Positions 32,901 to 53,271 are shown, counted from the stretch's first letter. The stretch: 64,000 bases of DNA from Monocercomonoides exilis PA203 (GCA_001643675.2 LSRY02000038.1:372001-436000); one strand, 5' to 3'. Numbers and translations are program-made. Notes: generated from the letters alone by a model not told the origin.

Positions 32901-35123
32901 AACCACAAACACATTCGGTGAAGAATCTCTTTCAGAGTTGTGATCAATTCCCACATGAAGAATCTCCAGCTGCCCACTCCCCACACTGAACAGCGTTGTT
33001 GAAGGAGAAGAAAGAGAGCTCGTCATGATCACACTCACTTGCTTCCCTTTCCCAATGACCGAAATCTTCTTTGTCCCAATCTCAATTGTTGTTGTTTCGC
33101 TTATGTGATTCCCTTCCAACAGCGTGATCGATGAGCTCAGCTCTTCCAAGCCCGTCTCCATCGCATGTCCAACAGTCTTGCAAGGAACCAACTCATCCAT
33201 TCCACACAGCCCATTTGAGTCGTCTCCATTCACCCCTACAAGCAGAACCTTCTGCCATTCGTTCAGCCAGCCCATCTTTTCGGTGTGCTGATATGTCCAA
33301 TTTTTTGAACTTGAAAAATTGGATGCATAGCACACTCTCTGATTGTTTGAGTTTGTTGTGAAACATTCATGGAACGGAATTCCAGAGTTCACATACAAAT
33401 TGTGATGATCAATAAATTCGACATCATGCCCGTATGGAAGATTGGAAGAACATTCACATTGATGGAAGAAAAGGAAATAGCAATAAATTTTATCATTTGG
33501 CGCTGTTGATTCATTTGGATACAATCTCAATCCTCCTCCATTTGATTTTGCAGAGCAAGAAATATACTGAATGCTCCTCATTTTGAATTCCGTTGGAACT
33601 CTGCAACAAAACATACCTCCACCACAAGTATTAAAAACAGAACAGGAAGAGAAGCTGCAGTCAAACACGCATGCACTTCCACTTCCTCCATTTTCTGTTT
33701 CAATATATTCAGATCCTGAAACTTTAAAATTTTCGAGTTCAAGTCCTCCACCGTAAAAATTTGCTTCACAATTCTGGAATTCGCAACTGCTTATCCGAAC
33801 ATTTGATGAAATAGCAGCAAAACACATTCCTCCTCCCAAATAAGTTTGAGCAGTGCAAGAGTTGAATAAGTTGTTTTCAATTTCAACAGATTTGAGACTT
33901 ACACACATAACTCCTCCTCCATCGTAATGAGCATAGCAGTTGTTGAAAGTGCAGTGAGAAACAAACAGTCCTCCATTAACCAAGTTATTCATAAAAATTG
34001 CCCCACCATTTGAAGCCGCATCAGTGTATGTATTTTTTGTTCCAGTTGTCCTCGATCCGTTCCACTCGCACCAAATGAATGTGTTTTGCCCATTTTCTGT
34101 TTCGTTCTGTCTCCCTGGCTTCGATGGAATTTCTTTGCTTCCAATGAATTCAACATTTCCTGTGCGTGTGCATCCGGCAAAAGAGGTGTTTGAGGCTGTC
34201 AAAGAGGCCAAGGGACTGTTCAGAGAAGGAACAATCCCTCCATCATACACATCACAAACTGATGAAAATGAGCAGTCATTCATCAGAGTGGAACATCCAC
34301 ATCCCAAATCAAAAGGAATCCCTTTGTGTGTTGGAACTGTTGAAATGTTGGTGAAAATCAAATATGTGAGTGAAACGCTCTCAATAAAGTGAGAAGACAG
34401 AAATGAAGGAGAAGACATCTGGAATGAAGAAAAGCCTGACGAGCAAGCAGAAACACAATTGGCTGAGTGACTTTTTGATCCACTCATTTGTGAGGAAAAA
34501 AGAGGAGGTATGTGTGTCTGCTGTGAATTCCAAAATCGAAGTGTCAAGTTTGACAAAGATATTCGACTCCCACACAAATCAAATGGACTTATCCCGCTTC
34601 TGACTTCAAAATTGCATCCAATAATCATCGCAACACTTTCAGTTCTTAAGGTTAATGAACTTGTTAATCCATTTGCCATCATCCCCAAATTCATGCACAA
34701 CAAAGATGAATTATCCAGAATAATGTGACTTTTCATCTTGCTTTCTTCAATTCCTTCTTCAACCTTCTTTCCATTGTAGATGCTAATATATGATGCGTCT
34801 CCTTCAATTATGACGATATTCCTGTTTGTGTTTGTGTTTGCCGATTCAATTCTGTTGTTTTGATTCTTTCTCCATTTTCCTTTCCATCCCTCAGATTCAT
34901 CATGTTCAGAACTCTTTTCACAATGTTGTGCTTGCACATAAGTTTCCTTTATATTGCAATTATTTTCAGCTTCAGTTGAAGTCGTCCAATCACTTGCAGG
35001 AATCATTTGAGAAACATTTAATTCTGGAATTGTTCCAACTTTGTCATTTGTTGCATCGTTGCACAAGCAATGCAAATTAATAATGTTCACCAATATTGCA
35101 GCAATAACCATCATTAGATTCAT
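26961..35123 (-). CDS. Giant type I membrane beta-helix receptor with pseudokinase tail (copy B, inverted paralog of 5408-13594)
   Basis: Intronless ORF, ATG at 35123. Same architecture as copy A and near-identical over long blocks (N-terminus, central ectodomain, DPKAFEMVTME, LRWKAPELLINKK). Confidence 0.88.
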   Translation of the reverse strand: MNLMMVIAAILVNIINLHCLCNDATNDKVGTIPELNVSQMIPASDWTTSTEAENNCNIKETYVQAQHCEKSSEHDESEGWKGKWRKNQNNRIESANTNTNRNIVIIEGDASYISIYNGKKVEEGIEESKMKSHIILDNSSLLCMNLGMMANGLTSSLTLRTESVAMIIGCNFEVRSGISPFDLCGSRISLSNLTLRFWNSQQTHIPPLFSSQMSGSKSHSANCVSACSSGFSSFQMSSPSFLSSHFIESVSLTYLIFTNISTVPTHKGIPFDLGCGCSTLMNDCSFSSVCDVYDGGIVPSLNSPLASLTASNTSFAGCTRTGNVEFIGSKEIPSKPGRQNETENGQNTFIWCEWNGSRTTGTKNTYTDAASNGGAIFMNNLVNGGLFVSHCTFNNCYAHYDGGGVMCVSLKSVEIENNLFNSCTAQTYLGGGMCFAAISSNVRISSCEFQNCEANFYGGGLELENFKVSGSEYIETENGGSGSACVFDCSFSSCSVFNTCGGGMFCCRVPTEFKMRSIQYISCSAKSNGGGLRLYPNESTAPNDKIYCYFLFFHQCECSSNLPYGHDVEFIDHHNLYVNSGIPFHECFTTNSNNQRVCYASNFSSSKNWTYQHTEKMGWLNEWQKVLLVGVNGDDSNGLCGMDELVPCKTVGHAMETGLEELSSSITLLEGNHISETTTIEIGTKKISVIGKGKQVSVIMTSSLSSPSTTLFSVGSGQLEILHVGIDHNSERDSSPNVFVVSDGSGSLSLEDVLISSSVVGTNVISSSVFVVALSQLRMIDVEIKDMKVSQPLFSEPSSGEAESEESFLSNVTIRNVNLTEGDGVVVAKSVNREETFVVSNATIEGCVCENGNGGGIHICLQGKGEVVVNRTSLIDGCVAMGIEGNGGRGGGLYVVMESGGSGLTIGENVEFSKEIQNVAEYGKDVFVSCGGGVFLESKVNTNTFAFFDTREIPSDVFQLSGSENGDESGVIPLFVYLCTMGTKVLVDGSGGNGMDHNRCGFEGFGCLTVDYCANSRLSESSNEMEVVSSSSIKDEIEFFSFGAIISGRIVSSDGERTGVNVSDGGSATQDWLVGCSSSLTMSRLSFVVKDQLNSRRSAFIHSISTLSVTNCSVSFEGEALTDGKIGYNVINVEGGNLIVDGFLMESGVTLKMNGKSPISMTSGAQLEILNSRVSGMEVEGGIGGGCLNVGMKEGGSSKIEECNLSSICSGGSGMKGGGMMISVGSGGSLNMKNVNLSECEVQTEDREDRGRGMGGGMFAELPEEIGSFVMEGMEFEGCNAWKGKNVFVSGWDLREIVNKEHFKWEMNEEELKSLDELCGWEMKTTGEKGYVIPLVVYLWSNWSGNGFVSREKGGDFSGCGYSEAPCSSVDHLISLRYGSLGEGESHIKIVGSGLLQKSISFLSSLSLSITPVVSIEGENEETILKVSEEGGMITSNVVVSFTNLSFSLPNELVSHSSLIHSATSSATSLSIKRCSFVCEDSAKETKYCLIKADGGSVVIEDCTLSQFNLAKGFVEFTADVKSVDVMNVSVSNTTISGSSLISLSRAFPTNVLISKARENTKQIVRVNSSSFANITCLENRACVMSVGSFLNGMECEIEGCVLTKCMSERSLEGGGMKMLMKRGESEMKVSGCSFGMCVCSTGNGRGGGMMIDALDPNGEHTNTEIPPLGLRLENIRFMMNDAFVGKDVFIRCDSIDLQLNERLFGLDFSQEALKGKDSMCGSDGEGKVDVDLIPLITFYYSSQVFVCVNGSDNRQCGAQNHPCESIGNAVQHIQRSMMNVLWIDGEGMMGEECVIGDVRMVSMGREKATVHFEGKMEERGEERSMMVFVNESVVERCLFVFGEMFESTQKYVVKVKEGQMVMNECSFEGSASGMGKMLKNTLVGVEGGEMEMVRCTIRNICHCGRLVVFCGESLAVMDETRIWDVESEGEMIVVEGEARVSVKEVGMENITIMGEWSVMGMRGSGDGNLSNCTFSGCESGREKGGIVLVENCEDVWIEMCDVCGGVDKEDEERNLMEMNEKEEKEGRERICKWNGSMVGVEKSRVVMKDTRIQESGKGGLSVSGGSVTIIEGKFENNNPFIEKYPSVRRNIICSDSGILNINSLKGGDGLMPNSSLWILNDGCSLGGIAAERQSPFFVPRLEDISVNENGSNIVVKFKGSLFVPCDLSFRVVYKTGDVELVETYQFEEDGFVSETEVIGRVPSENISLASDETEVSVMILFGKQSVETSPQILKNKTESKNGNEKVVEGREEVKSYWLLIVIVLVVVLLIVLIVSIILAIRWRKAKNENKDLREIVNDNIRKDPKAFEMVTMEISPEEQWRRAEREAENKNEERIKKRVYAKKMAHSESSEHLLSESGSTEYILGRDSDKIPEWALEKDEEEEIRKRTPSPSISSTSTTDTTDSDSTFVRREDLCPTTSSMSNLVDAIACSSPHEKLIVDLRDSLFMLLHGLNKTKEMAIGTLKEREQTAAQILFWVANGALHSFDEMEYPLSSFENLNPHIVLFSEHMVICIALHSDCSSDSDTSSSSSLTIVSSSSNISLMSERFTDSPPPSSAFEEDDDLKKECLRWKAPELLINKKMGATKESVVFSIGMMLWECLTLDIPFGEYDAETAGQKIENGERSSIQMISSSAYHDIIKGCFSEQETARPTVVTLKREFIQRFPAGAVVLTISDAIDLNDDSQEGEGGSGSISILFVEKPTVIERASDVNDYQQTDNLL

Positions 35124-35649: not shown

Positions 35650-38370
35650 TCATTTCATCTTTTTTGTAGAAGACAAAGAAGACAAAGAAGAAAGAGAAGA
35701 AGTTCGTTTCGGAATTGTTCTTTCTATTTGTGATTGTCTGGGTGAAGATGGATTTGAGCGAGGCCTCTCAGAAACATTCTGTGAAGTGGCATTTGATAGA
35801 CGAGGAGACTGGGAAAGAGGGCGGGGTGGGATGATTGCAGAAACAGAAGAAGAGGAAGAGGAAGAAGAAGAAGAAGAAGAAAAGGAAGATGAAGAGGAAG
35901 AGGAAGAGGAAGAAGAAGGTGAATGAGATGAATGAGATGAAGGAGACAAAGGAGAACGTGAAGATTTGTGTGTGCGATTGTGAAGTGGAGCAGAAGATGT
36001 GAAATGCATATTAGCAGATGAAGAAGAAGGAGAGGAGGAGGAAGAGGAGGAAGAAGGAGAAGGCGAGGCAAGTGAAGTGCGTTGTGTTGGTGCAATCGGC
36101 ATCTGAGTTGAAGTGTGCTGTGAAATGGAGCTTTTGTTCTGTGAAAGAGAAGAAGAGGAAGAGTAAGAGTAAGAGGAAGAGGAAGGAGAAAGAGAAGAAG
36201 AAGAAGAAGATCCGAAAGAAGTACGATTCAATGAATTTGCTTGTTTCTTTGCATCAATTCCATCCATCTCCCCACCTCCACTCCATTTCTTCTCCATCTT
36301 CTCCTTCTTCTCCTTCTTCTCCATCTTCTCCTTCTTCTCCTTCTTCTCCTTCTTCTCCTTCTCTTCCTTCCTCTCTATTTTCTCCATCTTCTCCATCTTC
36401 TCTATTTTCTCTATTCTCTCCGCATTCTTCTTCATCCTCACCCCGATTCTACTCCCCTCTTCCCTCACCACCTCCGCCTCTTCATTAAACCTCGCCATCT
36501 CATTCACTTCCCTCGCTGCTTTGCCATATGCCTCTTCCAACAGCCTGCTCATCTTCCTCAGTGCTTCCAGCTCTGCATTCTTCTTCTTCACCACATTTCC
36601 AATCTCTTCGATTTCTTCCTCTTTCTCACTCACTTTCGCATCTGCTTCGTTCAAATCCAGCTCACTTTCTCGCAATTTCTGATGAAGATGGACAATTTCT
36701 GTCTTCAGCCTCATGTTCTCTCTCTCCAACACATCCAAATCGTATCCTCCTCCTCCTCTTCTTCTTCTTCTTGTCTGCTTTTGCTTTTGCTTCTGTTGAT
36801 GTTGTGATTTGGTCTTCTCATCGAAATCGGATGAAGCAAGTGAAGGAGGAGGAGGAGAAGAAGAAGAAGATCTTGCATTAACTTCTTCTTCTTCTTCTTC
36901 TTTTCCATCTTCTCCTTCTCTGCCTCTAAGCAAGCTCTGTGATTCCATAATCAGTTTTTCCTGTTCTTTCAGTGCGGACAGAAGAAAACTGACTTTGCTG
37001 AAGGGCACCATCGCCTCTTCCACATCACCCAATCTCTCACTGATCAACTCTGCTTTCTTCCCTTGCTGCTTTTTATTTCCTAATTTAACCTCATTTTCTT
37101 CTCCATTTTTGCCTTTTTTCTCTTTCTTCTTCTCCTTCATCCTCCTCACCTTCATCAGGATCCATTCCATCGATGCATCGCTCGCCCTTCTCATTTCTGC
37201 TGCTACTTTCACGGCTGCTTCATACCTCCCTTCGCTCATCACAAACTTTGCCTTGTTCATCTGGCTAATTGCTAATGTTTCATTCAATTCTTCATTCAGT
37301 ACATCCATCTGCTCCTGCTGCCATAGAAGCTTCTTCCTCAGAGCGTTGACAAGAGTGAAGGAGGAGGGAATTGGAGGAGGGGAAGAAGAAGAATGAGAAG
37401 AAGAAGAAAAGGAAGAAGGAGAAATAAAAGCAGAAGTTCGGAATGTCCCAGATGTGTTGCTTCGTTCTGCTAAGCTGACTATTTCTTTGACTTGGTTTTT
37501 CTTTTTCTTTTTCTTCCCTCCAAACTTAATTTTTCCTTTCATTCCGTTGCTATCTTCATCATCATCATCACTTTCTTCTTCTTCTTCTTCTTCCTCTTCT
37601 TTCCATCTCCTCCACACTTCCTCACTCACATCTCTTTCTTTCCTCATTCTCTCTGCATCTCTCTTCAATTCTTCATTCAAAAACTCCAAATGAATCATTT
37701 CCGCATTCAAAGAAGCACATTTTCCCTCAAAAAACGCGATTCTTGTCTGCAAAAGGCGAATAAGCTGCTGCTGGGAAGAGAAAAAGAGGAGAAGGCTGTG
37801 GGGAAGAAGAGGTTTTTGAGGGTATTTGTGAATGATGGAGAAGGTGGAATGAGGAGAAGAAGAAAAGGAGGTGGTGGTGGAAGAAGAAGAAGAAGAGGAA
37901 GAAGAAGAAGGATAAGAAGAAAGAGGAGATGGAGAAGAAAGAGAAGAAGAGGAAGAAGAAGAATACAACATCTTTTCATCAGATTGCATTGGAAGCGGAT
38001 CAAATGGATTGACTGCTACGTTTTCATCCATTTCGTCTCGAATCTCATTTTGAGGAATAAATTCAAAAGAATTTGGCTTTTGAATGTAATTATTTTTGTG
38101 ATTGCGAAGATTTTTATTCTCTTTTTCATTTTCTTCTTCTTCTTCTTCTTCTTCTTCATTTTCTTCTCTTTCTCTTTCTTCTCTTTCTTCTCTTTCCTTT
38201 TCGCTTCTAACTTCTTCGCATATTTTGATCGACATTTCGCCAAACAAACCAGAAAAAAGCAGATTTTCAGACACTTTTTGAAGCAATTCCAGTTCTTTTT
38301 GTTCTTTTTCAGTCATTTTTGTGACATCTCTTGAAGGAAAAGTTTTGAATGTGTTGAGAAAAGAAGAGGA

Positions 38371-38406
<36 letters not shown>

Positions 38407-38437
38407 AGAGGAAGATAGAGAAGAAGAAGAAGAAGAA

Positions 38438-38469
<32 letters not shown>

Positions 38470-41400
38470 AGAGGAAGAAGAAGATTGTGAATGAGATGAA
38501 TATTGATGTGGAATAAGATTGAAAGAAGAAGCAAAAGTTGGCTGAAGAACAGAATGAGGAACAGAAAAAGCAGGTTTGTGTTCAGATGGAGAAAGAAAAG
38601 AGGACAAATCAGAAGAAGAAGAAGAAAGAAGAGAAGAAGGAGAAAGAGAAAGAGAAGAAGAAGATGATGATGATGGTGACAATGAAATGGAATGAGAAGA
38701 AGAAGAAGAAGAAGAAGAAATTTTCATCTTTGTTGGATCTTGTTTTTCCTTCTCATTTTGCAAAAGTCTTTTTGTGTTCGTTTTTTTTATTGAATTTGTG
38801 GCGATTTCAGTGAAATCAGATGAAAGACGAAGAAGAAGGAAGTTCAATGGAAGAGAAGGAGAGGAAGAAGAGGAAGAAGAAGAGGAAGAAGGAGAAGGAG
38901 AAGAAGAAGAAGATGATGATGATTGTGAAATGTTTGTTGGTTTTGAATTAGAAGGAGAAGAAGAGGAAGAGGAATAAGAAGAAGAAACATTACAATTTTG
39001 AGGTGTTTGGCAATTTTGAAGAGTAACAACAGCTTTTTTGAAGGCAGAAAGGAAAGAAGAAGGAAGCATAACGAATGGAACAAGATTATCTGATGAAAGA
39101 GAAGGAGAAGGAGAAAGAGAAGAGGAGGAAGAAGAAAGAGAAGATGAAGAAGGCACAAAAAAGGCAGATAAAATGAGAAGAAAATCGGTTTCCTTCAAAA
39201 CATTCAGCAAGCAGAGCTGAAGTTGTCTGTTGGAATCTCTTAAAAACTTGTTTATTTGCTTAAGAGATGAAAGAGAAGAAGAAGAGGAAGAAGAAGAAGA
39301 AGATGATGATGATGAAATTGAAACCTCTTCTTTCTCCTCTTTCTCTTTCTCTCTTCCTTCTTCTCTTCCTTCTCTTCCTCTTTCTTCTCCATCTCTTTCT
39401 CTTCTTCTTCCCCCACAAACATCATCATAAACCCCGTTCTTCTCAAACAAAGCCTCAGCCAATGCATGTTGTGAATATTGATAAAGTCTTCTAAGAGAAA
39501 AGAAAAGATGAGAAGGAACATTCAAAGAAAGAGAAGAAGAAGAAGACACGGAGAAACGGAGAATTTCGCATTCGCATTCGACAAGGCGCTGGAGAAGAGA
39601 AGGGTATGTGGACTTGATAAAGGCATGGAGACGATTGAGACGAGAAGAAAGAATAAAATGCTCGTTTTCATTGTTGTTGTTGTTGTCGGAAGAAGAAGAA
39701 GAAGAAGAAGAAATTGAATTTTTGTGTTTATTATTAACTTTCTTTTCTTCCTCTTTCTCTTCCTCTTTCTCTTCTTCATTCTCTTCTTCCTCCTCCTCCT
39801 CTTCTCCTTCTCCTTCTTCTCTGTCATTCTTCTTCATCTCCTTCATCTTCTTCTTCATCTCCTTCACTTTTTCTCCCTCTCCAACATTCACCCCCTTCTC
39901 CTCCATCTCCTTTAAAATTCCATTCCACACATTTTCAATCGCTTCTTTCTTCTTCCTCTCTTCTTCTGCTTCAACGTTCTTCTCTTCATACTTCTTCATC
40001 AAAGAATTAAACCGGATTACCATCTTCTTCGCGTCCCACACATTTTCTCCTCCGTTTTTCCCTTCTTCCTCCACTGGCAAATCTGCCAATTTTCTCAATT
40101 CTTCCGTCTCTTTCTTCAAATTTTCATATTCTTCCTCCAACTTCTTCATCTTCTTCTCATTTTTCTCTTTCACTTCTTCCAATTTTTCGATTTCTTTCTT
40201 TTGTTTCATTTTTTCTTTCTCATTTTCTATTTTCTCTTTCTTCGTTTCCTTCATCAATTTGCTTATTTCTTCATTCAATTGCTCTTTTGCTGCTTTCAAT
40301 TGTTGTTTGAGCGATCTGTTTGCCATCTGCAGCTTCACAAGCTCTTCTTTCTGACGAATTAATGAAGAAGAGGAAGAAGAAGAGGAAGAAGAAATCTTAA
40401 AATCATCATCATATTCTTCTTCTCTTTCTTCTTCTCTTTCTTCTCTTTCTTCTCCTTCTTTCTTCCCCTTCCTCCCTCTCCTCCTCTTCAACTCCCTCTT
40501 CAACTCCATCTCCACTTCTTCCCTCCTCTTCCTCTCTTTCTCCATTTCCCTCTTCATTTCCCTCTCTTTCTCCTTCATTTCCTCCAACATTTTGTCATTT
40601 TGTGCGGTTATCGCCCTCAACTGCCCCATCAGCTGCATAGATACCTCAAGTTGCTTGCTTGCTCCGCTTTCTGATTGAATTCCTCCTCCTTCTCTTCTTC
40701 TTCCTCCTTCTCTTCTTTCTCCTTCTCTTCCATCATCATCATCTTCTTCTTCTTCATCAGCAAAGTCATAACTTCTTCCTTCTCTTCCTCTTCCTCTTCC
40801 ATTTTCATCAGAAAATGAAGCAAATGAAGAAAACGAATTTGAAGTTGGAGGTGCAATTTGAGGAGGAATACGAGAAGAAGAAGAAGAAGCAGAAGCAGAA
40901 GAAGAAGAAGAAGAAGAAGAATTCAAATAACTTCCTCTTCCTCTGTCTTTATCTCCATCTCCATTTTTATTTCTTTCAGTATTATTATTATGTTTATTAT
41001 TATAACTAGATTTTACACTTCTTCTTCCTTCTCCTCTTCCTTCTCTTCCTCCTTCTCCTTCTCCTTCTTCTTCTCCTTCCTCCACCCTCCTCAGCTCATA
41101 CCCCTCTAATATATCCGCCACTGCCCTCTCCACTTTCTCCACCTTTCCCGCGGGGATATCGCTCTCCACCGCCCTCCCCGCCCTCATCATCGCCTGCACC
41201 CGCATCTGCTGCTTCAGCGAAATTCGCTCTTTTTCCAGCCTTTCTATTTCACTTTCGAGTGTGGAGACATAAGAGCGCAGCTGCTCGCACTCAAGACGGT
41301 GCTTGGACTTCATCTGGGACAGTTCTTTGGCTCGTTGGGTGGAGAAAGAGGAGGAGGAAGAGGAAGAAAAAGAGGAAGAAGAGGAAGAAAAGGAAGAAGA

Positions 41401-43020
41401 GGAAGAAGAAGAAGGAGAAGAAGGATAAGAATAAGGAGAATAAATTGAACCAACAATTGGTGATTGATCCTGGTCAAGGGGAGTGAAAGAATATTTGATA
41501 CCGACTGGGACGTTTGAAGGAGAAAGAGAAGAAGAAGAAGAAGAAGAAGAAGAAGGGGAATAAATAGAATTCTGTGATTTCCGTTGATAAATCCCATCTC
41601 CTTCTCCTTCTCCTTCTCCTCTTCTTCCTCTTTCTCCTTCTCTTCCTCTCTCTTCTTCTCCTTCTCTTTCCCTTTCCCTTTCTCCTTCTCCTTCTTTCTT
41701 CCCAAACACCTTCTCCTGCAGCCACTCCACTTCCTCCAGCACCACATCTTTCTCTTCATTCAGCCTGTCAATCTCCTTCAGCAGCTTCTCAATCTCTTCG
41801 TCTTTCTCTTTCATCATTTCCCTCATCTCCCCTGCTTCCTCCACTGCTTCTTTCAATCCATACACCCCCTTTTCATACTCCCTCATTCTCGCCTTCACAA
41901 ACAGAAGCTCATCTTCATCTACTTTTCGCTCTCTCAAAATGTCTTCGGCTTCTTTCTGCGCTGCCCCGCGCAGTTCCCTCTCTTTCTCGGCTGTTTGGAT
42001 CAGCTGAGACAGCGCTTTTTGGAGAGAACTGATACGCTGCTCGTATTTGAGGGCGGTTTCGGTCTGGAATGAGAGAGAGAGGGAAAGAAAGAGAAAGAAA
42101 ATTAAAGAAAAAAATAAAGAAAAAAAATAAGAAAAAAATAAATATAGAAAAAGAGAGAGAGAGGAAAGAAGAAGAAGAAGAAGAAAATAAATAAATAAAT
42201 AAATAAATAAAAGATATTAATTTTTATATTCACACAAACATCCAATCCGCCTCCAGCGCTATCCAACTGCTGTTGCAATATCTTCTCTCTAATTCTCGCT
42301 TCTTCTGCTTGTTCTTCTTCTCTTCTCTTCTTCAACGCCTTTCTCGTACTTTCATCTTTTCCCTCTTCTCTTTCTCCTTCTCCTCTTCCCTCTTTCTCCT
42401 TCTCCTTCTCCTTCCTCTTCAGCTCCTCCATCAAATCCACAATCTCCTCCTCCTTCGCCTGCAGCATCATCTGCGCATCTTCCACCTGCCTCTGCAGCTC
42501 TTCTATTTGTTGCCCATACCTTTTCTTCTTCTCTTCTTCAATAATCGCACTCAATCTCGCATTCTCCTCAAAAAACCGCTTCGATTCCGCAGCATGGTAC
42601 ATTATCTGCTTGTCCTTCAAATCCACCTGCCTCAGAAGCTCATTCAGATTCTGCTCAATCACAAAATTCAGCTCTTTCTCTTTCTTCCCCGTCTCCTTCA
42701 CATGCTCCTCTAACAAAGTCTGCAGCGATTCGCTGTGTTGTCTCAGCTCGGAGCATTCTTCTTCCAACTCTTCGTTTCTTCTTCGGCTCTCGTCTAATTC
42801 TCTTAACACAGAAGACAGTTGCTCTTTGTCGGCTTTGCCTTGAATGGCGTGCTCTTTCTGCTGTTCTATTTCTTGTGACAGAACAAGATTGTGGTCTGCT
42901 ATCTCGTTGTTCTCAACACGCAGGCGCTGAAAGGAACAGGAAAAATAATTTTTTTTTAATATAAATTTTTATTTATAAAATAAAATGAAAAGAAAGATAA
43001 AAAGAAGAAGAAAAGAAAAA

Positions 43021-43052
<32 letters not shown>

Positions 43053-43917
43053 AAAGATAGAAAAGAAAGAAAAGAAAAGAAAAGAAAGAAAAGTATTTTG
43101 CAATTTGAAGATATTCAGCAAATGGAGGGGAAAAATTAATAAATAAAATACAAACAATTTTCTGAAATAATAAAAAGAAATCCAAACCTCCAACTCTTGA
43201 CGCCTTTTGTCCAATTCAGCTTCGAATTCATTTTTCATCTTTGTCATCCGTTGCTCAATTTCAAAAACTTGCTTCTTCGCTTTTTCTTCTCGTTCTGCAC
43301 TATCTAACTTTTCACGCTTGACTTTTTCTTGCTCCTGTATTAAAGCAATATTTGATCCTCAACTATAAAGAGCTGTATTAATCAATCTCAAAGCACACTC
43401 TTTCTAAATCTTGCTGCAATGCCAAAATTTCTCGTCCCTTAGCGTTCGATTCTTGCCTCAGTCTTTCGATTTCATCTCTCAATTGTCTGTTTTCTTGCTC
43501 TGCTGAACGGTCATTGGCAACTTTTTCAAGACGAAGGTTATCATTTCGTAAATCCTGTGGGGAAAGAGTTAATTTTAAAAAAATTATTAATACTGAAAAA
43601 TCAATTCACACTTCAACAATGTTAATTGCTTCGTTCTTTTGTTTATCCCACAACCTTTAAAAAATTATGATAAATAAATAATAAAATCTACAGAAATTTT
43701 CACACTCAAGCATGCATTGAGTGACAGAAAACAAATGAAAGAGATTCGCTGGAGTTGAATCTGGATCATTTGTATTCACTTTCAAACTCGCAATCAACGA
43801 AAATAACTCAGCTCTTTCAGCTTCATCAGCTCCAACAATAATATCTTCAGAAATTCCTAGAATTGCATCCCAATCAACAGGTGTGACTTTTGGAAGAAAG
43901 TCTACCGACAATGACAT
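35650..43917 (-). CDS. CEP290: Ciliary transition-zone protein CEP290 (~2550 aa, 6 exons)
   Basis: Exons 43706-43917, 43612-43654, 43399-43554, 43188-43334, 42240-42926 and 35650-42063 join in frame via GT-AG introns. The N-terminus VDWDAIL...NLFHLFSVTQCML and the motifs MREYEKGVYGLKEAV and EIERLEKERISLKQQMR match recalled CEP290 hallmarks (INWKEIM...VIHLFRITQSLM; DYESGVYGLEDAV; EIESLEEERLDLK). Long coiled coils. Confidence 0.85.
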
Positions 43918-44374
43918 GCAATATCGCCAAAAGAAGCTGTTTTACAATTTCAAATTTAAATAAAAAAGTTTGGGAAATTTCATAAATGAAGTCTCAATTA
44001 AATCGAACCAGTCTCATTTTCTTTTAAAAAATCAAAAAATAATTTCTTTGGAAATAGAAATTTTCTAACTCTGTTGTTTTCAATTAAACATAACTCTGTG
44101 TTTATTCGAAAATAAAAATTGAAAAGGAAAAGGTAATGTCGTTTTGAAAATAAAATTGCAATAGTTAAATAAACCTTCAAACATAAAAATCAAAATTATC
44201 TCAATTTTAACAAATTACTCAAACAAAAGGATTATTTTACATGTACAAGAACTTTATAAAAATGTACGATTACATATACATCAACTTACAGCTTTGATCT
44301 AATTGCTGCAGTGGTAATCATATACATAAAAAAAAAAATAAAGACGAGATTTTTCTCCTTTTTTCTTTCTCCTT

Positions 44375-46426
44375 TTACTCTGATGGTTCAGGATCTACAA
44401 CATCACTTTTATTCCTCACGATTGAGTAGCTAGCAGCGTCAGTCACATCGCCTCTCCCAGTGAAGCCATACACTGTGCGCTTCACTGTCTTCGTGGCTGG
44501 GTATTGCTCCACCACCACCATTCCTTCCTCAGTCATCCGGTCAAAGAAGCAGGCGTGTGCAGTGGTTGGCGTGCGCTTCACAGTCTTCTTCACCACCTTC
44601 GTCTCCTTCGTGACAGGATCCACTTCTTCATCCTCAACCTCCACGTCGATGCGCTCAGGGAATGTCCCGTTCACAAACGTCGCAATCACAGCGCCTGAGT
44701 CAATCGGGAACGACGTGTTTGTAATCGCCTCTCCTGCCACCCACTCGCTCGTCGCACCCACATCTGAGAAGAGCTGCACCAGCGACACACAATCGCCATC
44801 GTCATACGACTCCACATCCACAATCGCCTCTACTCCTTCTTCCAGCTCAATGTAATGCCCTCCTTCAATCGGCGGGTTCGGCGCTGGATAGGGCTTTGGG
44901 TGTGGGGGCTCTGGACGTGGCTTAGGTGGTTTCGGAGGCTTGGGTGGATTTGGTACAGGCACATCAGGTTCATCTGGCTCGTCTGGCTCATCCGGTTCAT
45001 CAGGTTCATCAGGCTCATCAGGCTCATCAGGATAATCTGGTTCATCAGGCTCATCTGGGTAGTCTGGTTCATCGGGATAGTCTGGCTCTGGCTCTGGCTC
45101 AGGTTCTGGATGAGGCTTTGGTGGTTGCGGAGGTTGTGGCTTCGGCTTTGGTGGTAGGGGCTTTGGAGGATGCGGCTTTGGTGGTTCAGGCTTCGGGGGT
45201 TGTGGACGCTTCGATGGAATTTTGATTTTCTGGCCAACGTATATCTTGTTAGGATTGGCAATATGATTGTATTTTGCCAATTCTGCAACTGTTGTGTGAT
45301 ATATTGCAGCTATCTTTGACAACGTGTCTCCTTTCTTCACAACGTAAACATCCTTCGATGGCTGAGGCTGTGGCTTTGGTTGTGGCTTTGGCTGTGGCTT
45401 TGGTGTTGGCTTTGGTTGTGGCTTGGGAGTTGGCTTGGGAGTTGGCTTGGGAGTTGGCTTGGGAGTTGGCTTGGGAGTTGGCTTGGGAGTTGGCTTGGGA
45501 GTTGGCTTGGGAGTTGGCTTGGGAGTTGGCTTGGGAGTTGGCTTGGGAGTTGGCTTTGGTGTAGGCTTTGGTGTAGGCTTGGGGGTGGGCTTGGGGGTGG
45601 GCTTGGGGGTGGGCTTGGGGGTGGGCTTGGGGGTGGGTTTTGGAGTTGGTTTTGGTTGTGGCTTGGGAGTGGGTTTTGGTGTAGGCTTTGGTTTTGGCTT
45701 GGGAGTTGGCTTTGGTGTAGGCTTTGGTGGTTGGGGCTTTGGTTTAGGAGGCTGTGGTTTAGGCTTGGGTGGTTGAGGCTTTGGTTTTGGTGTGGGTGGT
45801 TGTGGCTTTGGTTTTGGTGTGGGTGGTTGTGGCTTTGGTTTTGGAGAAGGTTTTGGTTTAGGCGTGGGCTTAGGCTTTGGAGTTGGCTTAGGTTTTGGAG
45901 TTGGCTTAGGTTTTGGAGTTGGCTTAGGCTTTGGAGTTGGTTTGGGTTTTGGAGTTGGTTTGGGCTTGGGAGTTGGCTTTGGCTTTGGCTTTGGCTTGGG
46001 AGTTGGCTTGGGTTTTGGTTTTGGAGTGGGCTTTGGTTTCGGCTTTGGTTTAGCTGCCTTTGCACCGTCCAATTCTTCTCCAGAATATTCATCGTCTAAT
46101 TCAAATATTTCATATTCGAACTCCAATTCGCTTTCTTCTTCTTCTCCCTCATCATCGAAGACCTCTTCCGAATCAATATACTCTTCATCTTGATCCTCAA
46201 AAAGTTGAATGATCTCGTCTTCATCTTCCTCCGGAATTGCTTCTATCTCTTCCGTTTCATCCTCCTCATCGTAAACATCCGTTAACTTGTATTCTACGTT
46301 CTGGTATTCATTCCAGATCTTTCCTTTTTCATAGACAGCGCTTGCGTTGAATTCACTTCTTTCTGGCTCAAGCTCCAGAAATGAATTTGCGAAAGCAGCT
46401 GATATCAAAATCAACAGTTTCAGCAT
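44375..46426 (-). CDS. Secreted LysM + Tae2/BPSL0067-family (NlpC/P60-fold) peptidoglycan amidase with Pro-rich stalk
   Basis: Probable start [15 protein letters not shown] at 46426 (signal peptide), then an acidic tract and PKPT repeats. Canonical Lys[45 protein letters not shown] at ~45215-45349. C-terminal domain [44 protein letters not shown]. Confidence 0.85.
45360..46050. repeat. Coding minisatellite of 12-nt units encoding PKPT/PKPQ
   Basis: Eleven perfect GGCTTGGGAGTT units at 45420-45551, a GGCTTGGGGGTG block at ~45576-45635, and 18-nt PKPKPT units further on. Confidence 0.95.
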
Positions 46427-46798
46427 TTTTCCAAAATTCGAAATGATGAAAAAAATTTTTTCCATAAATTTTTATTCCATTATAGAGGAAAATAATAATA
46501 CTCATAATTGGAAGATCAATAAAAATGAAAATTGAACAGAAATAGTGTTTTGTCATTTGTTGTGTCTTTTTAATAAAACATATAACAAAAGACAATCGAA
46601 AAGAAAAAATAGTGCTTCTATTTCTTCTATTATTGAACATATTTTAGGTTTTCAAAAAAATAAAACGCTAATCTGAAAATTTTTTTGAAGATCTGTTGTT
46701 GAATGAAAAGAACATTCAAAATTTAACAAAAAAAGTGTTTTCGTTCTTATTGAGAGAGGATAGGAATATTCAAAATATAACAAAAAAACAAGAAAAAT

Positions 46799-46882
46799 TC
46801 TCCCCAGCCGGGTTCGAACCAGCGACCTCAAGATAACAGCATTTTCTACAGTCTCGCGCTCTTCCAACTGAGCTATGGAGAG
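46799..46882 (-). tRNA. tRNA-Tyr(GUA) with 11-nt intron (46835-46845)
   Basis: CTCTCCATAGCTCAGTTGGAAGAGCGCGAGACTGTAG[aaaatgctgtt]ATCTTGAGGTCGCTGGTTCGAACCCGGCTGGGGAGA. The acceptor stem pairs, the T-loop GTTCGAA is present, the intron is at the canonical 37/38 site, and a T-run follows. Confidence 0.97.
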
Positions 46883-47495
46883 AACTAGAACTAGAGGTTT
46901 TTCGAATCTTGAGCAAAAAATAAATTTGATTTTATAACATAGATGTCAACCTCTTTTTTTGGAATTGATTCAATCAAATTGGAACTTTCTCAATCTCACT
47001 TGGTCCAAAATAGGAATTACGAAATGTTTGAAAAACTGATCTTAATATTTTTTTGTTTCTTCTTTTATTTGATTCCTTCGTTTCGATTATTCTCTATACT
47101 TTGATATTTTATGCATCTTTATAAAATCCATGGTGTTTTGATCTGTTTTCAGCAAATTTTGAGTTTTTTTATAGTTCAAAAGGTTTGCATTTGTTTTTAA
47201 TTCTTTCACATGATATCCTTGCGATTGAGCATTTATATTAATTCTTATGATTATTTTCATATGTTTTAAGCTATTAACAGCTGTGACGTTTTATTTTAAA
47301 TCAGGATCATTAATAATACTTTTTCAACGTTTATTTCATATAAAACTCAAGGGGAAACAACGATTTTTGTTTCATTTCATTATTTTTTATGAATATTTTA
47401 TGACATACATACAATAAGTTATATTTTTTATTCTCTTTTATTTTTTTTTTTAAAAAAGGTGAATGATTGAAAAATAGAAATAATAAAAGAAAAAA

Positions 47496-49046
47496 CTAAT
47501 TTCTTTGTTCCAAAAGAAGCCTTAAAGGGCTTGGCGTAATTCTTTTCGCCTTTTCTGCTTCTGATGAACGTGGAGTTGAAGGAAAAGGAGATGAAGAAGA
47601 TGCAGAAGAATGTTGGATTGATTTCCACTGACCTGGTAAACACCAGGCCATAGAATTATCATCTTCGTCACTATCATTTTCTTCCAAATCAATCCTTTTC
47701 GTTTCATTTCTATCTTTTTCTTCTTTTTCTTCTTTTTCTTCTTTTTCTTCTTTTTCTTCTTTTTCTTCGATTTTTCGCTTTTCTTTCTTTTCTTCTTCAT
47801 ATTTCTTTTTCAGTGCGCCTTCCTTTTCATTCTGTGAAATATCTGAATAAAAAAAAGAGAAAATATAATGGTTGAAAGAGTTATCAAAAAAAATCGAATA
47901 AAAGATAATGAATATAAATATGGGTAAAGTAATGAATAATAAACTGTCTATTTGTGCGTGTAAAGTAGTTATTGTGGGTGTAATTGACAAGCTCGGATTC
48001 AATCTATTTTTCAATTTTATTCGATATCTCTCATTCGCTATTTGTCTTGCTTTTTGTTTTTGTAAATGCTCCGTCCACAAGTTGTCCAAAATACGCTGAT
48101 TTGCTTCCCCATCTGCTCTTGTCAATGGATTTCGTAATATATGAAAATTGGTCAAACAACAAGCCACACAGAAATAATCAGCAACCCTTTCAACTTCAAA
48201 TGGCCACTGTCTTCGAAAAACTGAAAAGAGGGTCTTCAGACGACCGAAAAACCGTTCCACGATAACTCGATGAGTTGCTAGCTCTGGTGTTCCCACTGGT
48301 TTGGTGATAATTGCAGCCAAATCAGGTCTCGCTCCTATGTAAGCCGAATCAGCCAATATTTTTGCCCCTCCCAAACGATCCAAAAATTGAGGATAATGAT
48401 CTTTAAAGACTGTAAAGTCATGAGTAGAGCCAGAATGAATTGCACTGATAGTACTTGCTGTCCCAACTTTGGGATTGATTCCAACCTCAGCTTTCACACA
48501 ATATGTGTGATGTTTCCCGCTAAAAAACTTTTTCCCAAAGTCTAATCGACCTCCAGGTCTGTTGATGGGAATGATTGTGCAGTCCAAAACAATTCCAACC
48601 TCCTTCATCACTTCAATCCTGTCAGGGCGAAATGTCAAAAACAAATCTGCTAATGGAGCTCTGATATGAGAAACAATACTGTGAAGAAGTCTGACAAGAG
48701 CGTTTTGAGTTTCATAGAAAGGTGTGGATAATAAAAGTGTGAGTGTTGTTGAACCGTGATGAAGAAAAGTGAGTAACAAGAATAACTGTTCATCAAAATT
48801 GTTGATTGCTTTCAGTTTCCCTCGACGATGAGGAACTTCCATTTGAAGAATGTGAATGAGAAAATCAAATTCTTCTTTTGTGAATCCAGTAAGTCGAAAA
48901 AAAGAAGAAACAGGATCATCAAAAAAGTCACAAGCTTTTTTGATGATGGAAATTTTTTCTTTCTTTTGAAGTGATTCATTCCGTTGTGGAATAATATTTC
49001 TCCTCTCCACACTCTTCAAAACGTCCAAAAAATTTGAATGTGACAT
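47496..49046 (-). CDS. DDE_Tnp_4 (ISL2EU/PIF-Harbinger/HARBI1-like) transposase, copy 1 (~482 aa spliced)
   Basis: Motifs FFRLTGF, VLDCTIIP..RP, FSGKHH, GSTHD, ILADSAYIG and RVIVERFFGRLK. A 102-nt intron at 47843-47944 happens to be in frame and stop-free. Confidence 0.88.
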   Translation of the reverse strand: MSHSNFLDVLKSVERRNIIPQRNESLQKKEKISIIKKACDFFDDPVSSFFRLTGFTKEEFDFLIHILQMEVPHRRGKLKAINNFDEQLFLLLTFLHHGSTTLTLLLSTPFYETQNALVRLLHSIVSHIRAPLADLFLTFRPDRIEVMKEVGIVLDCTIIPINRPGGRLDFGKKFFSGKHHTYCVKAEVGINPKVGTASTISAIHSGSTHDFTVFKDHYPQFLDRLGGAKILADSAYIGARPDLAAIITKPVGTPELATHRVIVERFFGRLKTLFSVFRRQWPFEVERVADYFCVACCLTNFHILRNPLTRADGEANQRILDNLWTEHLQKQKARQIANERYRIKLKNRLNPSLSITPTITTLHAQIDSLLFITLPIFIFIIFYSIFFDNSFNHYIFSFFYSDISQNEKEGALKKKYEEEKKEKRKIEEKEEKEEKEEKEEKEEKDRNETKRIDLEENDSDEDDNSMAWCLPGQWKSIQHSSASSSSPFPSTPRSSEAEKAKRITPSPLRLLLEQRN

Positions 49047-49859
49047 CAGAAAAAAATAAGAACAACTTTCGTTTGATCAAAACCAAATATTGAAATTTTG
49101 TTATTAATGATCACGAAACCAACATTTGTGAATATGAATGTTATTGAATCAAATCAAATAAGTTTGATTCTATTCGGTTTTCAATCGATATTATTAAGTG
49201 TTTATATATCTTTTGCGGATGCATCAGATAAAACACAAAAGGTTCTAACTTGTTCGAATTTTCCCTGCCGCACCGAATTGATTGAAGAAATTCGAATTAT
49301 TTGTGACTTTTTGAATGTTTCTCGCTCAATTCGGTATTTTCTTAATCTTTTTCCAGGCAACTCGAGGATTTTCAAATTTTTTTTGTTTTGTAACTTGTGA
49401 TCTTAACTTTTTTTGTTTCTTAAATTACTTCACCATTATTTTGAGTTAGGTTTTAACATTTTGTTTGTGTGTTTATTATATGTAATTAAAACTTTTTATG
49501 ATCGGTTTTTTGAGTTTTGTTTATTTTTTGTTTAGTGCATTTATATCATGTTTTTATGCAATTTTAACAAGTATAAATAACTTTTAACCATTTTTAACTA
49601 TATTTTTTATATGTTTAGTATAAATATGATAGTTCTGAATGTTTAAATAATATTTTTTTAACAAATTCACTCATTTCATATTTTAATATTTTGTTTTGAG
49701 TACAAACAAGTCAACAATGATAATTAATGAAAATTTCTTGAATTTTTATTTATGCTTTATATTAATTTATATAAAAAAACATATCAATAATAAAATCATA
49801 TTGTATTTAGATAAAAATGTAACAAAGGTGAATTGAAAAATAAAAAACAATAGAAAAAC

Positions 49860-51380
49860 TCACTGTCTTTGGTTTAACAAGCTCTGCAAAGGAGTTTCGC
49901 TGACTCTCTTTTCTTTTATTGAAGCACTAGAGGAAGAAGCAGAAGGAAAGGAAGACGATGATGAGGGTTGCTGAAAGCGAAGAGACCTCCACTGATTTGG
50001 TAAAAACCAACTTGATAATTCGTCACTGTTTCTTTCTCTTTCTTCATCTTCATCTCTTTCGTTGATTATTATTTCGTCTCTCCTTTCCTTTTCTTCGACA
50101 GTTTTCTTTTCTTTCTTCTCCTTTTCATCTTTTCTTTCTTTTTCTCTTTGATCTTCCCCAGTTCGCTGCTCTTGGGCTTCAGAATTGCCTGAAAAACATA
50201 GTTATGGTAATGGAAATATAAAAACAAGTAAAATAAACATTATAAACATTAATATGGGTAAAAATAAAAAAGTCTAACTATCTTCTGAATAAAATAGAGT
50301 TGTGATTGATGATGGTGTTGGAGCTTCAGGATTCAATCTTTTCTTCATATTGACTCGATAGCGTTCATTAGCGATTCGCTTTGCTTCCACTTTCTTCTCA
50401 TGTGACTGCATCAGATATCCAATGAATCGAGAATTTGCATCTGAGTCGACTGCAGTCAGTGGGTTTTTCAGGATGTGAAAATTCGTCAAACAGCATGCAA
50501 TTGTGAAATACTCCGCCACTCTTTCCACTTCAAATGGCCATGGACGCCTGAAAACGGCAAAAAGAGTCTTCAACCTCCCAAAAAATCGCTCGACAATTAC
50601 TCTTTTGGATGCCAATTCGGGTGTTCCGACAGGTTTTGAGATTATTGCACCCAATTCTGGCCTTGCTCCAATGTATGCTGAGTCAGCAAGTATCTTTGCT
50701 CCTCCCAATTGACTCTCAAATTGAGGTAAATGATCTTTGAAAAGGACAAAATCATGTGTTGACCCAGTTTGGACGTGACTAATTGTACAAGCAGTACCAA
50801 TTCGAGGATTAACACCAACTTCCACCTTCACACAGTAAATATGATGCTTTCCACTATAAAATTTCTTTCCATATTCCAACCTTCCACCTGGACGATTTGT
50901 GGGAATTACCGTACAATCCAAAACAAGACCCACCTCCTTCATTCCTTCTAGACGATCTGGGCGAAAAGTGAGAAATAAATCAGTCAAGGGCACTCTGATG
51001 TCTGCAGCAATTCTGTGAAGAAGTCGAATTGTTGCATTTTGAGTGTCATAAAAAGAAGAAGAAAGCATAAATGTTAGTGTAGTGGATCCATGATGAAGAA
51101 AAGTGAGTAATAAAAAAAGTTGATCAGAAAAATTGTTGATTGCCTTTTCTTTTCCTCGATGAGGAGATATTTCTTTTTGAAGAAGTTGAAGTAACAAATC
51201 GAACTCAAATCGGGCGAAGCCCGTAAAGCGAAAAAAAGCAGTTGGTGTGTTGTCCAAAATATTTAAAGCTCTTTCGATGATTGAAGTGGTTTTTTTTGTT
51301 TCTTTGATAGCAGGAGAAGCAGGCATTTTATTTCTTTCTTCAACTCTCTCTAAGACACTCAAAAGTGAAGATTCAGACAT
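49860..51380 (-). CDS. DDE_Tnp_4 (ISL2EU/PIF-Harbinger/HARBI1-like) transposase, copy 2 (~476 aa spliced)
   Basis: Same motifs as copy 1. Intron 50189-50278 (GTTAGA...TTTCAG) follows an exon 1 of identical length (1102 nt). The last exon encodes SWFLPNQWRSL...PLQSLLNQRQ*, homologous to AWCLPGQWKSI...PLRLLLEQRN* in copy 1. Confidence 0.88.
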
Positions 51381-51589
51381 TGATCGAAACAGTCAAAAAA
51401 TGATAACAACAAACACACCCTTTATATGTAAATATTTTTGTGATCAAAAAGGACCCATGATAAAAAACAATGGATGTGATTAAATCACATTGGAACTTAG
51501 TCGATCTTTTTGGAATGATATCAAACTCATACCAAAAAGAAAAAGTTAATGCGATATAACAAAATAAATTCGAATAAGTTCTACTGTTA

Positions 51590-53271
51590 GTCGGTGAGGA
51601 AACCCGATCCAGGGAGGAAACCCGATCCATTTTTGATCAAAAACTTGGATTAATGTTTTTGATCAAAACTATGGAAAAGAAACCTTCTCTTGTCAGAATT
51701 AAAGCATCGAGTGATATGCGTTCTATTGGAGATGAGTTTATCAAGGCCTTGTATGCCTATGATATTTTGCAATATTCCGGTCGTGAAATCGAGGAAAGCG
51801 GGTTGATTTCGAGAGGATGTTTGGTGAGAGCCTTGAAAGCAAGAAAAGAAGGGAGAGATTTAAGAAAAAACGGTAGACCAACATTGTTTACTAAAGCAGA
51901 AGAAGATGAGTTTGAAGAGAGGATTTTGGAGGACATTAGGATCGGAATTTATCACACGAAACGAAATATTATGCAAATGGTGTGAAAACAAGTCTTTTCA
52001 TCATTTTTTTTAACTTTTTTTGTTTTTCAGGCAAATGAATTATTGTGCAAAAAAAGAAGCGAAGGAGAAGAAATCAAAACTGTGGACAAGCATTGGGTTG
52101 ATCGTTTTTTGTTAAGACATAAAAAAATCAGCTTGCAAAAGCCGAAACCGCTGCCCATTGGAAGGGCTGCACATTCATGCAAAGCTGTATTAATTCCGTT
52201 TTTCGACGCCTACGAAAAATATTTCTTCAAAGTGAAACCTATTCCTCAATTGATGTTCAATATTGATGAAACATCAACAGTTTTTTCAGCTTTGTTTGAA
52301 GAACAGGTAGCTTCATCATCTTCTGTACCATCATCAATCACTCCAGAATCGTCTCTGCCAACCTCCACATCCATCATTGTAATGACTAGCTCCGATGGGT
52401 GCAGATACCTTGCACCAGTTCTCATTCCCTTCAAAACAATTCCAGCTGAATATCTTCTTGCCACAACCTCAACTGAAGTTTTTATTCCAACCACGTCAGG
52501 CCATTTAACATCGTCATTATTTGCTGAATTGTTCAAAAAAATATTTTTGCCAGAAATAAACAAAAAACGGTGCGCCATAGGAAAGCAATATGATCATGCT
52601 ATGCTGGTCATGGATGGAGGTGTGGGTCATTTCAGCGATGAAATGAAAAAAGTTTGCAGAGACAATTTAATAGATTTGATAAAACTTCCTTCTCACACCT
52701 CTCATATTCTACAGCCCAACGACCAATTTGTGTTTGCGAGTTTAAAGAGGAATTTCAGCAAGGCAACGGAAAGCGGGAAGGCTACGACGGTCGCGGAGAG
52801 AAGAGAAGCATTTATTCGAACATTGAAAAATGGACTATCAGCTGCTAGTTACCCCTCAACGATAATTGCTTCGTGGAGGGTTTGCGGCTTATTTCCAATG
52901 GACAAAAATGCAGTTTTGAATCGTTTGCCTGATGCCCCTCCTCAATGGGCTGCCTCACAAATAAATCCTGAAAGAGCACCAGAAGGTGCTTCATTTGGAG
53001 CAGTCTATTATTCATCTGACGATGATCATCAACTTTTTGCTTTAATTAAGACTTTTTCTCAATTTCAGTTAATAATACGTTTATTTGAATTTCTGTTTTT
53101 GAAAATCGTGCTTATTATTTTATTCAGTTTTTTTTTCTGTTAACAGTGCATTTTTCATATATTGAACATATTTTTTTCGTCAAAAAAACATAAAATTTCA
53201 TCAATTTATCTTAAATGTTTTTTTAGATCATTGGGTCGGGTTTCCTCCCTGGATCGGGTTTCCTCCCCGAC
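51590..53271 (+). mobile_element. Full-length pogo/Fot-like DNA transposon (1682 bp)
   Basis: 40-bp TIRs at 51590-51629 and 53232-53271 (GTCGGtGAGGAAACCCGATCCAGGGAGGAAACCCGAtCCA, 2 mismatches). TA on both sides (51588-51589, 53272-53273). Encloses a transposase gene. Confidence 0.93.
51653..53143 (+). CDS. pogo-type DDE_1 transposase (DD35D), ~479 aa, 2 exons
   Basis: Exon 51653-51979 (GRPTLFTKAEE) splices through a 51-nt intron (51980-52030, GTGTGA...TTTCAG) to 52031-53143. HTH_Tnp_Tc5-like HWVDRFLLRH; catalytic FNIDETS, VMDGGVGH and LPSHTSHILQPND, with 35 residues between the 2nd and 3rd Asp. Confidence 0.9.

Follow-up and report, generated by a model that had tools for sequence, protein, structure and literature searches.

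The window analysed here, a 64,000-nucleotide stretch of the Monocercomonoides exilis PA203 genome, carries an open reading frame of 683 codons that encodes a LysM domain and a C-terminal domain of the Tae2/BPSL0067 amidase family in a single polypeptide (Table 1). A preliminary description of this DNA had proposed an intronless gene in which a hydrophobic N-terminus, an acidic tract, a stalk, LysM, a linker and a C-terminal domain follow one another. This order is borne out by a composition scan and Pfam, the frame is open over all 683 amino acids, and its C-terminal part is free of joints in contigs from RNA libraries. An in-frame ATG at 46465, upstream of the assigned start, could add 13 amino acids. 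The signal peptide is predicted on hydropathy alone, with a best 9-residue value of 2.89 within aa 1-13; the M. exilis paralogue MONOS_7044 also begins with a short hydrophobic run. Because the best 19-residue hydropathy window outside the N-terminus is 1.06, the product appears to have no transmembrane segment.

The proposed fusion of LysM to the Tae2-family domain in the same reading frame also holds. The LysM module scores 67 bits against a PF01476 gathering cut-off of 20.9 and covers profile positions 1-43 of 43. It folds alone with a pLDDT of 76-85, and it shares 34 of 45 residues with the LysM of the metagenomic protein P0005, described below. The repeat stalk and linker make up two thirds of the protein. 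When LysM, linker and C-terminal domain are folded together without an alignment, the pLDDT of 45.4 is uninformative on contacts between the domains.

Table 1. Positions in the window of the 683-codon reading frame, its parts and its neighbours
Feature	Position	Strand	Basis or remark
Whole ORF, 683 aa	44375..46426	(-)	ATG 46426 to TAA 44375 open, no intron needed
Predicted signal peptide, aa 1-13	46388..46426	(-)	Hydropathy scan
Acidic tract, aa 16-121	46064..46381	(-)	48 D/E and 4 K/R among 106 aa
Basic Pro/Lys/Thr repeat stalk, aa 122-358	45353..46063	(-)	118 P, 68 K/R, 35 T, no D/E in 237 aa
LysM domain, aa 361-404	45215..45346	(-)	PF01476, E 1.4e-18
Pro-rich and Asp-Glu-Pro linker, aa 407-522	44861..45208	(-)	Other sequence versions diverge within, near 44929
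BPSL0067/Tae2-family amidase domain, aa 523-671	44414..44860	(-)	NF033857, 58.1 bits; 6WIN fold match
Cys546	44789..44791	(-)	Aligned with Tae2 catalytic Cys (6WIN Cys23); Cys in 118/118 relatives
27-aa insertion (33 residues from Pro590 to His624, 6 in relatives)	44558..44656	(-)	Beta-hairpin in model
His624	44555..44557	(-)	Aligned with Tae2 catalytic His (6WIN His73); His in 118/118 relatives
Glu640 of (D/E)Q motif, possible third catalytic residue	44507..44509	(-)	Conserved in relatives
50-nt GT-AG stretch, intron in MONOS_9726	44695..44744	(-)	Likely prediction error
Likely 3' untranslated region	44050..44374	(-)	Contigs of runs X1, X4 and X6 cross stop codon; weak hint
tRNA-Tyr(GTA), 11-nt intron, upstream neighbour	46798..46883	(-)	
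Long spliced coiled-coil gene, downstream neighbour	35650..43917	(-)	GT-AG introns read directly

The setting is eukaryotic, as had been claimed. The gene lies on a 1.04-Mb M. exilis contig at the locus annotated as MONOS_9726. That a Tae-family gene resides in a eukaryotic genome is seen from assembled contigs that join its coding end to the flank, and from the paralogue on a separate 1.06-Mb contig. Of the two neighbours named in the preliminary description, the intron-bearing tRNA-Tyr is present; a reading of it by ARAGORN as tRNA-Ser was a miscall from a run without intron search. The other stands as a spliced coiled-coil gene. Its presumed identity as CEP290 is a matter of resemblance, and no Pfam or PDB match confirms the label.

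Just upstream of the tRNA are three DDE transposase ORFs (two DDE_Tnp_4 and one DDE_1, 47496-53143), and transposases so close by could have aided gene multiplication. Elsewhere in the window, two convergent receptor-like protein tyrosine kinases of 2.7 kaa (5408-13594, plus strand, and 26961-35123, minus strand) are 80% identical over 2,703 aligned residues and belong to a family reported as expanded in the M. exilis genome. An Mre11-like ORF (18866-20557, minus strand; PF04152, E 6.6e-9) and a low-complexity ORF of 2,448 aa with no Pfam match (56445-63791, minus strand) are also present.

The gene model and its relatives in M. exilis

The only close protein in the databases is MONOS_9726, a 126-aa M. 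exilis protein annotated at the same locus of the 1,042,076-bp contig; the 683-aa sequence is absent from the protein collection searched. MONOS_9726 begins in another frame, splices out a 50-nt GT-AG stretch and lacks the Cys and all upstream parts. The 50-nt stretch has a GC content of 0.56; four intron stretches in the coiled-coil neighbour have 0.09-0.33, and the genome-wide figure is 27.6% (PMC8767320). The Trp and Gly that it encodes are present in every one of 118 relatives, and its annotation as an intron is likely a prediction error. A gene model of this kind, 126 aa long and without the Cys, can keep such a gene out of sight when transfers are screened at the protein level.

Nine runs from three studies contain the stretch, and five of these, from two studies, are RNA-labelled. 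Four of the nine, three of them RNA, were compared over 44300-44960, which covers the C-terminal 661 bases only. No joint and no indel occurs in any of the four, and the region is unspliced in all three RNA runs examined, as judged on assembled contigs without a silent control stretch. In run X4 a contig continues unbroken from 44412 to 44923, across both the annotated intron and the insertion described below. Contigs carry no strand, level or full-length mRNA, and rare splice forms are dropped from them; the RNA-seq support that the preliminary description had looked for thus consists in the unspliced presence of the C-terminal domain region in RNA libraries.

The listed sequence variants are also in keeping with the long frame. 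All six, at five sites, are third-position synonymous changes (chance 4e-4, or 2e-3 by sites), a partial count because differences close to the ends of contigs, at least four in one record of run X9 (record 23) and one in run X6 (record 17), are missing from the variant table. At the 3' side, contigs of X1, X4 and X6 bridge the coding end into an AT-rich flank and end, by extrapolation from record offsets, at about 44058, 44055 and 44048. Downstream of the stop codon lie AAATAA at 44237 and AATAAA at 44106.

Close relatives of the protein are few. Among 1.84 billion representatives, a full HMMER search identified 11 matches at E 0.001, in which the locus itself is followed by P0003, then by MONOS_7044 (P0004) of M. 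exilis and by P0005, a metagenomic LysM-SH3b-Tae2 protein. MONOS_7044 combines its hydrophobic start with half a LysM, a Pro linker and a canonical active-site loop; the truncation of LysM to half length in the public model of this paralogue may stem from a comparable annotation error. Like the 683-aa protein, with which they share a clade and 46% identity over trimmed columns, MONOS_7044 and P0005 carry LysM before the Tae2-like domain. Unlike it, both are short, their loop is canonical, with 6 residues and with Tyr and Gly-Asn-His retained, and P0005 has SH3b added. LysM occurs in the same ORF as the family domain in only two of 232 relatives, both in this clade. In a search for longer proteins, a weak one, none of 984 candidates qualified at E 0.01.

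Branch points of the assembled contigs lie at 44412-44441 and 44929; at the latter, contigs of X4 and X6 have a loose end that carries a different Pro/Glu linker. Contig depth differs across the 44412-44441 branch (181 versus 1383 in X4), a difference used neither as copy number nor as expression. These branches are read as additional, nearly identical versions of the sequence that have the domain and its insertion in common, with no copy number implied. The M. exilis gene is thus a member of a small family in its own genome.

The Tae2-family domain and its active-site loop

From aa 523 onward, the C-terminal part comprises 161 aa. It matches the BPSL0067 profile of NCBIfam (NF033857) with 58.1 bits for the domain alone and 52.1 for the whole protein, against a curated cut-off of 27, and the Tae2 structure PDB 6WIN is matched by sequence at E 4.4e-6. 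Pfam and PHROGs gave no family for this domain. An AlphaFold2 model from 119 sequences (pLDDT 89.3, pTM 0.78) finds 6WIN in Foldseek at E 3.4e-8, with a TM score of 0.73 by target. The two superpose with a Z score of 18.2 and an rmsd of 2.3 over 125 residues. Among 435 aligned chains, 6WIN is the sole one at Z >= 8, and the next, a phage CHAP endolysin, reaches Z 7.6; the model was built from an alignment of family members, which favours the Tae2 fold. The profile, the 6WIN sequence match and Foldseek each place the similarity to the Tae2 family beyond chance. Both comparisons that the preliminary description had named, with the BPSL0067 profile and with the Tae2 structure, therefore turned out in favour of its assignment. 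The motif by which it had recognized the family fared less well, in that it conceals a 27-aa insertion between 'NGTFP' and 'AHACFF'.

The catalytic Cys and His are retained at exactly the codons originally given. They correspond to Cys23 and His73 of 6WIN, which are catalytic (10.1101/2020.04.10.036376), and superposition of the model on 6WIN would place Cys546 and His624 next to each other in space. In the column of Glu640, 107 of 118 relatives have D and 11 have E, and the next residue is Q in 117. We take Glu640 to be a possible third catalytic residue, by analogy with CHAP enzymes.

The loop that leads to the His is rebuilt. The 6-residue spacing is found in 118 of 118 relatives, and the insertion has no parallel among them. 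In the AlphaFold2 model it forms a hairpin with an acidic strand (aa 594-602) and a basic strand (aa 609-618). The hairpin reappears, though with low confidence (pLDDT 54-57), when no alignment is used. Within the insertion is an 18-nt near-copy, with one mismatch, of a later stretch of the domain at 44492. The insertion was considered as an unannotated intron and ruled out, given the absence of a joint in RNA-library contigs and a GC content of 0.56. Three substitutions accompany it: a Tyr present in 118 of 118 relatives is Phe589, a Gly present in 116 is Thr622 and an Asn present in 114 is Ala623. Thus, the domain departs from the Tyr-Pro-x4-Gly-Asn-His loop, which is a trait conserved among the relatives gathered here rather than a published criterion. 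N586-G-T in the active-site loop is also a glycosylation sequon. The insertion and loop substitutions are the main evidence against activity of the domain. In tick Dae2, loop divergence beside the channel accompanied a wider substrate range (Hayes et al., 10.1101/2020.04.10.036376).

Origin, predicted function and known systems

A profile search with a threshold of E 1e-5 gave 955 proteins, and the named proteins among the best 120 of these 955 are bacterial. From these proteins and fetched loci, 251 profile hits yielded 233 domains once partial and duplicate ones were dropped. Trees were built on subsets of 64 and 70 rows with 127-132 columns, and the bootstrap was unsettled in the second run. 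The domain of the 683-aa protein groups with MONOS_7044 and P0005 (95.7/96; 96/93 under a mixture model), and these three join P0003, P0013, P0014, P0015 and P0017 in a clade of eight (99.5/100 and 100/100). Deeper nodes, at 47/0 or lower, are unsupported, and the M. exilis domain is a long branch (1.91 versus a median of 0.34). The five sister proteins are tightly related (81-85% identical to P0003), stand-alone and 124 aa long, have no signal peptide and come from short metagenome contigs. Members of the clade were not found in a scan of 185,579 species genomes (15 loci) or in a metagenome scan (80 loci kept of 141), and annotated phages gave no match to P0003. Because the sister group is known from short metagenome contigs only and was not recovered from the species genomes, it may itself be eukaryotic.

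Members of the family occur in several genetic contexts. Five of the 20 prokaryotic loci sampled have T6SS structural genes next to the family gene, with 55 of 101 flanking ORFs scanned. At one locus (L006, 282-1483 and 2680-3657), the family gene and a putative immunity gene are accompanied by another, incomplete copy that runs on the other strand, with a PAAR protein nearby. In seven other loci (L107, L109, L114, L118, L119, L123 and L124, about 2600-6500), a Tae2/BPSL0067 domain lies inside phage ORFs of about 1,200-1,300 aa. The two of these tested, L118 and L119, match the phage baseplate hub/tail lysozyme family, and such ORFs likely represent a virion-borne wall hydrolase use of the family. 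On a viral contig (L106, 271-3294), a family gene that stands alone has a small ORF behind it and a phage integrase beside it, an arrangement like that of a prophage-borne effector-immunity pair. Several similar loci, within L099-L113, form one clade.

The M. exilis domain is likely of prokaryotic origin. The preliminary description had specified transfer of a Tae2 toxin from a bacterium to a protist. The part that stands is that all named kin outside M. exilis are prokaryotic or phage. Descent from a T6SS effector in particular does not follow, given that the family is also present in phage baseplate proteins and the tree leaves the clade unplaced.

Taken together, we consider it probable that the gene encodes a secreted fusion of LysM with a Cys/His amidase of the Tae2 family, likely acquired from prokaryotes, that cuts peptidoglycan cross-links of prey. 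The N-terminal peptide would route the protein to the ER and then to the food vacuole or the cell surface, taking the place of the type VI needle. LysM would hold it on glycan strands, and the cross-link between stem peptides (mDAP to D-Ala in the case of Tae2) would be cleaved by Cys546 and His624. The hairpin inserted next to the active site likely alters the range of walls accepted, as loop changes do in tick Dae2. More speculatively, and as the weakest step, the basic stalk may bind anionic surfaces of bacteria and so tether the protein there, and the acidic tract may keep the stalk masked before processing. Such a secreted amidase could serve in digestion or selection of prey. M. exilis preys on bacteria and has further enzymes for wall digestion, and the selectivity of its predation is described as unknown (PMC12308965). 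Dae2 fails to kill cells whose outer membrane is intact (10.1101/2020.04.10.036376). Since an enzyme of this type would be unable to cross an intact outer membrane unaided, Gram-positive or vacuole-permeabilized prey are the likely targets.

The rebuilt loop raises the prospect of a wall-binding pseudoenzyme, in which catalysis was lost or much reduced and LysM with a dead domain on a stalk traps bacteria that MONOS_7044 then cuts. The insertion and the changes of Tyr, Gly and Asn adjoin His624, the branch is long, two thirds of the protein are stalk and linker, and the paralogue is canonical. However, Cys, His and the (D/E)Q motif are all retained, the core superposes on 6WIN (rmsd 2.3, 125 residues), and loop divergence in tick Dae2 widened activity (10.1101/2020.04.10.036376). 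A membrane anchor, as a surface trap would need, was not found in the hydropathy scan. We regard loss of catalysis as unlikely. The public gene model, in turn, would make the spliced 126-aa MONOS_9726 without the Cys the functional product, and the long frame a by-product or an assembly chimera. Only the 126-aa form is in the database, and contigs drop rare splice forms. Nevertheless, we hold this account to be very improbable, with no joint in four of four runs, an 'intron' of GC 0.56 encoding the invariant Trp and Gly, listed variants that are synonymous in the long frame, contigs that cross the stop codon into the AT-rich flank, and the same order of LysM and Tae2 domain in P0005.

A difference of ancestry with the same chemistry would arise if the amidase, though active, had as its ancestor a family member that served as a wall hydrolase in phages or in housekeeping, or arrived via another eukaryote. 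The domain is found inside ORFs of about 1,200 aa on viral contigs (baseplate hub/tail lysozyme matches in two of two tested), the commonest phylum of the top Atlas cluster is Uroviricota, and the sister group (100/100) derives from short metagenome contigs and was not recovered in 185,579 species genomes. Yet the 124-aa sister proteins stand alone without a signal peptide, as stand-alone Tae2 proteins do, two phage baseplate sequences in the tree fall outside the clade, and stand-alone members often lie within T6SS clusters or ahead of a small putative immunity gene. Such an ancestry therefore seems distinctly improbable to us. An active, secreted LysM-amidase of likely prokaryotic origin is our preferred reading. 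It can be extended, though in a form that we doubt as a whole. The oxymonad lineage might have independently domesticated a Tae2 toxin, fused it to LysM and amplified it; the charge-paired hairpin and cationic stalk of about 240 residues in a highly represented subfamily might reach walls, possibly including Gram-negative envelopes, beyond those open to unaided Tae2 or Dae2; and the 124-aa sister group might be the donor or belong to further protists.

If the preferred reading is true, domesticated Tae2 toxins serve not only in the immunity of arthropods but also in predation, here by a gut protist that is anaerobic and lacks mitochondria. A canonical paralogue and a version with a remodelled loop in one genome would then offer a built-in comparison for a change in target range.

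Chou et al. reportedly described in 2015 that dae genes had been transferred several times independently, in some cases to protists, and that accessory domains for wall binding are present in some cases. The idea of a LysM fusion may therefore not be new. We came across no oxymonad gene of the Tae2 family in the literature, judged on titles and the starts of abstracts. In a 2025 paper on the metamonad toolkit, Tae has no occurrence (10.1101/2025.04.21.649813), and MONOS_9726, MONOS_7044 and LysM have no matches in two supplementary files of PMC12308965. The domesticated Tae enzyme is a concept already known, and the M. exilis gene is a new variant with a non-canonical loop, not a T6SS effector in place.

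Like Tae2/BPSL0067 proteins (NF033857; 6WIN), the M. exilis protein has a profile score above the cut-off, a predicted papain-like fold and an aligned Cys and His. Unlike them, it has a predicted signal peptide, LysM, 500 aa of extra sequence and a 27-aa insertion ahead of the His, and it is encoded at a eukaryotic locus. T6SS effectors proper form Tae2-Tai2 pairs, whereas this locus has no adjoining immunity or T6SS gene; beside it are the intron-bearing tRNA, the DDE transposases and the spliced coiled-coil gene. Metamonad wall hydrolases (NlpC/P60 with SH3b in Trichomonas; GH19 with SH3b or LysM) similarly combine a bacterial-type catalytic domain, a wall-binding module and a signal peptide. 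GH19 homologues in M. exilis, and LysM on other eukaryotic homologues, are noted in two reports (10.1101/320382, 10.1101/2025.04.21.649813). Trichomonas NlpC nonetheless belongs to a different catalytic family, and its structure matches the M. exilis domain model at Z 6.0 only.

A further parallel is with Dae2 of ticks and mites, a eukaryotic Tae2-family domain with an N-terminal secretion signal, loop changes at the catalytic channel and gene duplications. The secretion signal and the channel-loop changes are described in 10.1101/2020.04.10.036376, and the duplication of dae2 in ticks in 10.64898/2026.03.13.711553. The M. exilis case differs in its host, an anaerobic protist predator, and in the fusion of the putative enzyme to LysM and a long stalk. 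By profile, modelled fold and catalytic residues, the M. exilis protein belongs to the Tae2/BPSL0067 family, and it is predicted to work like Dae2.
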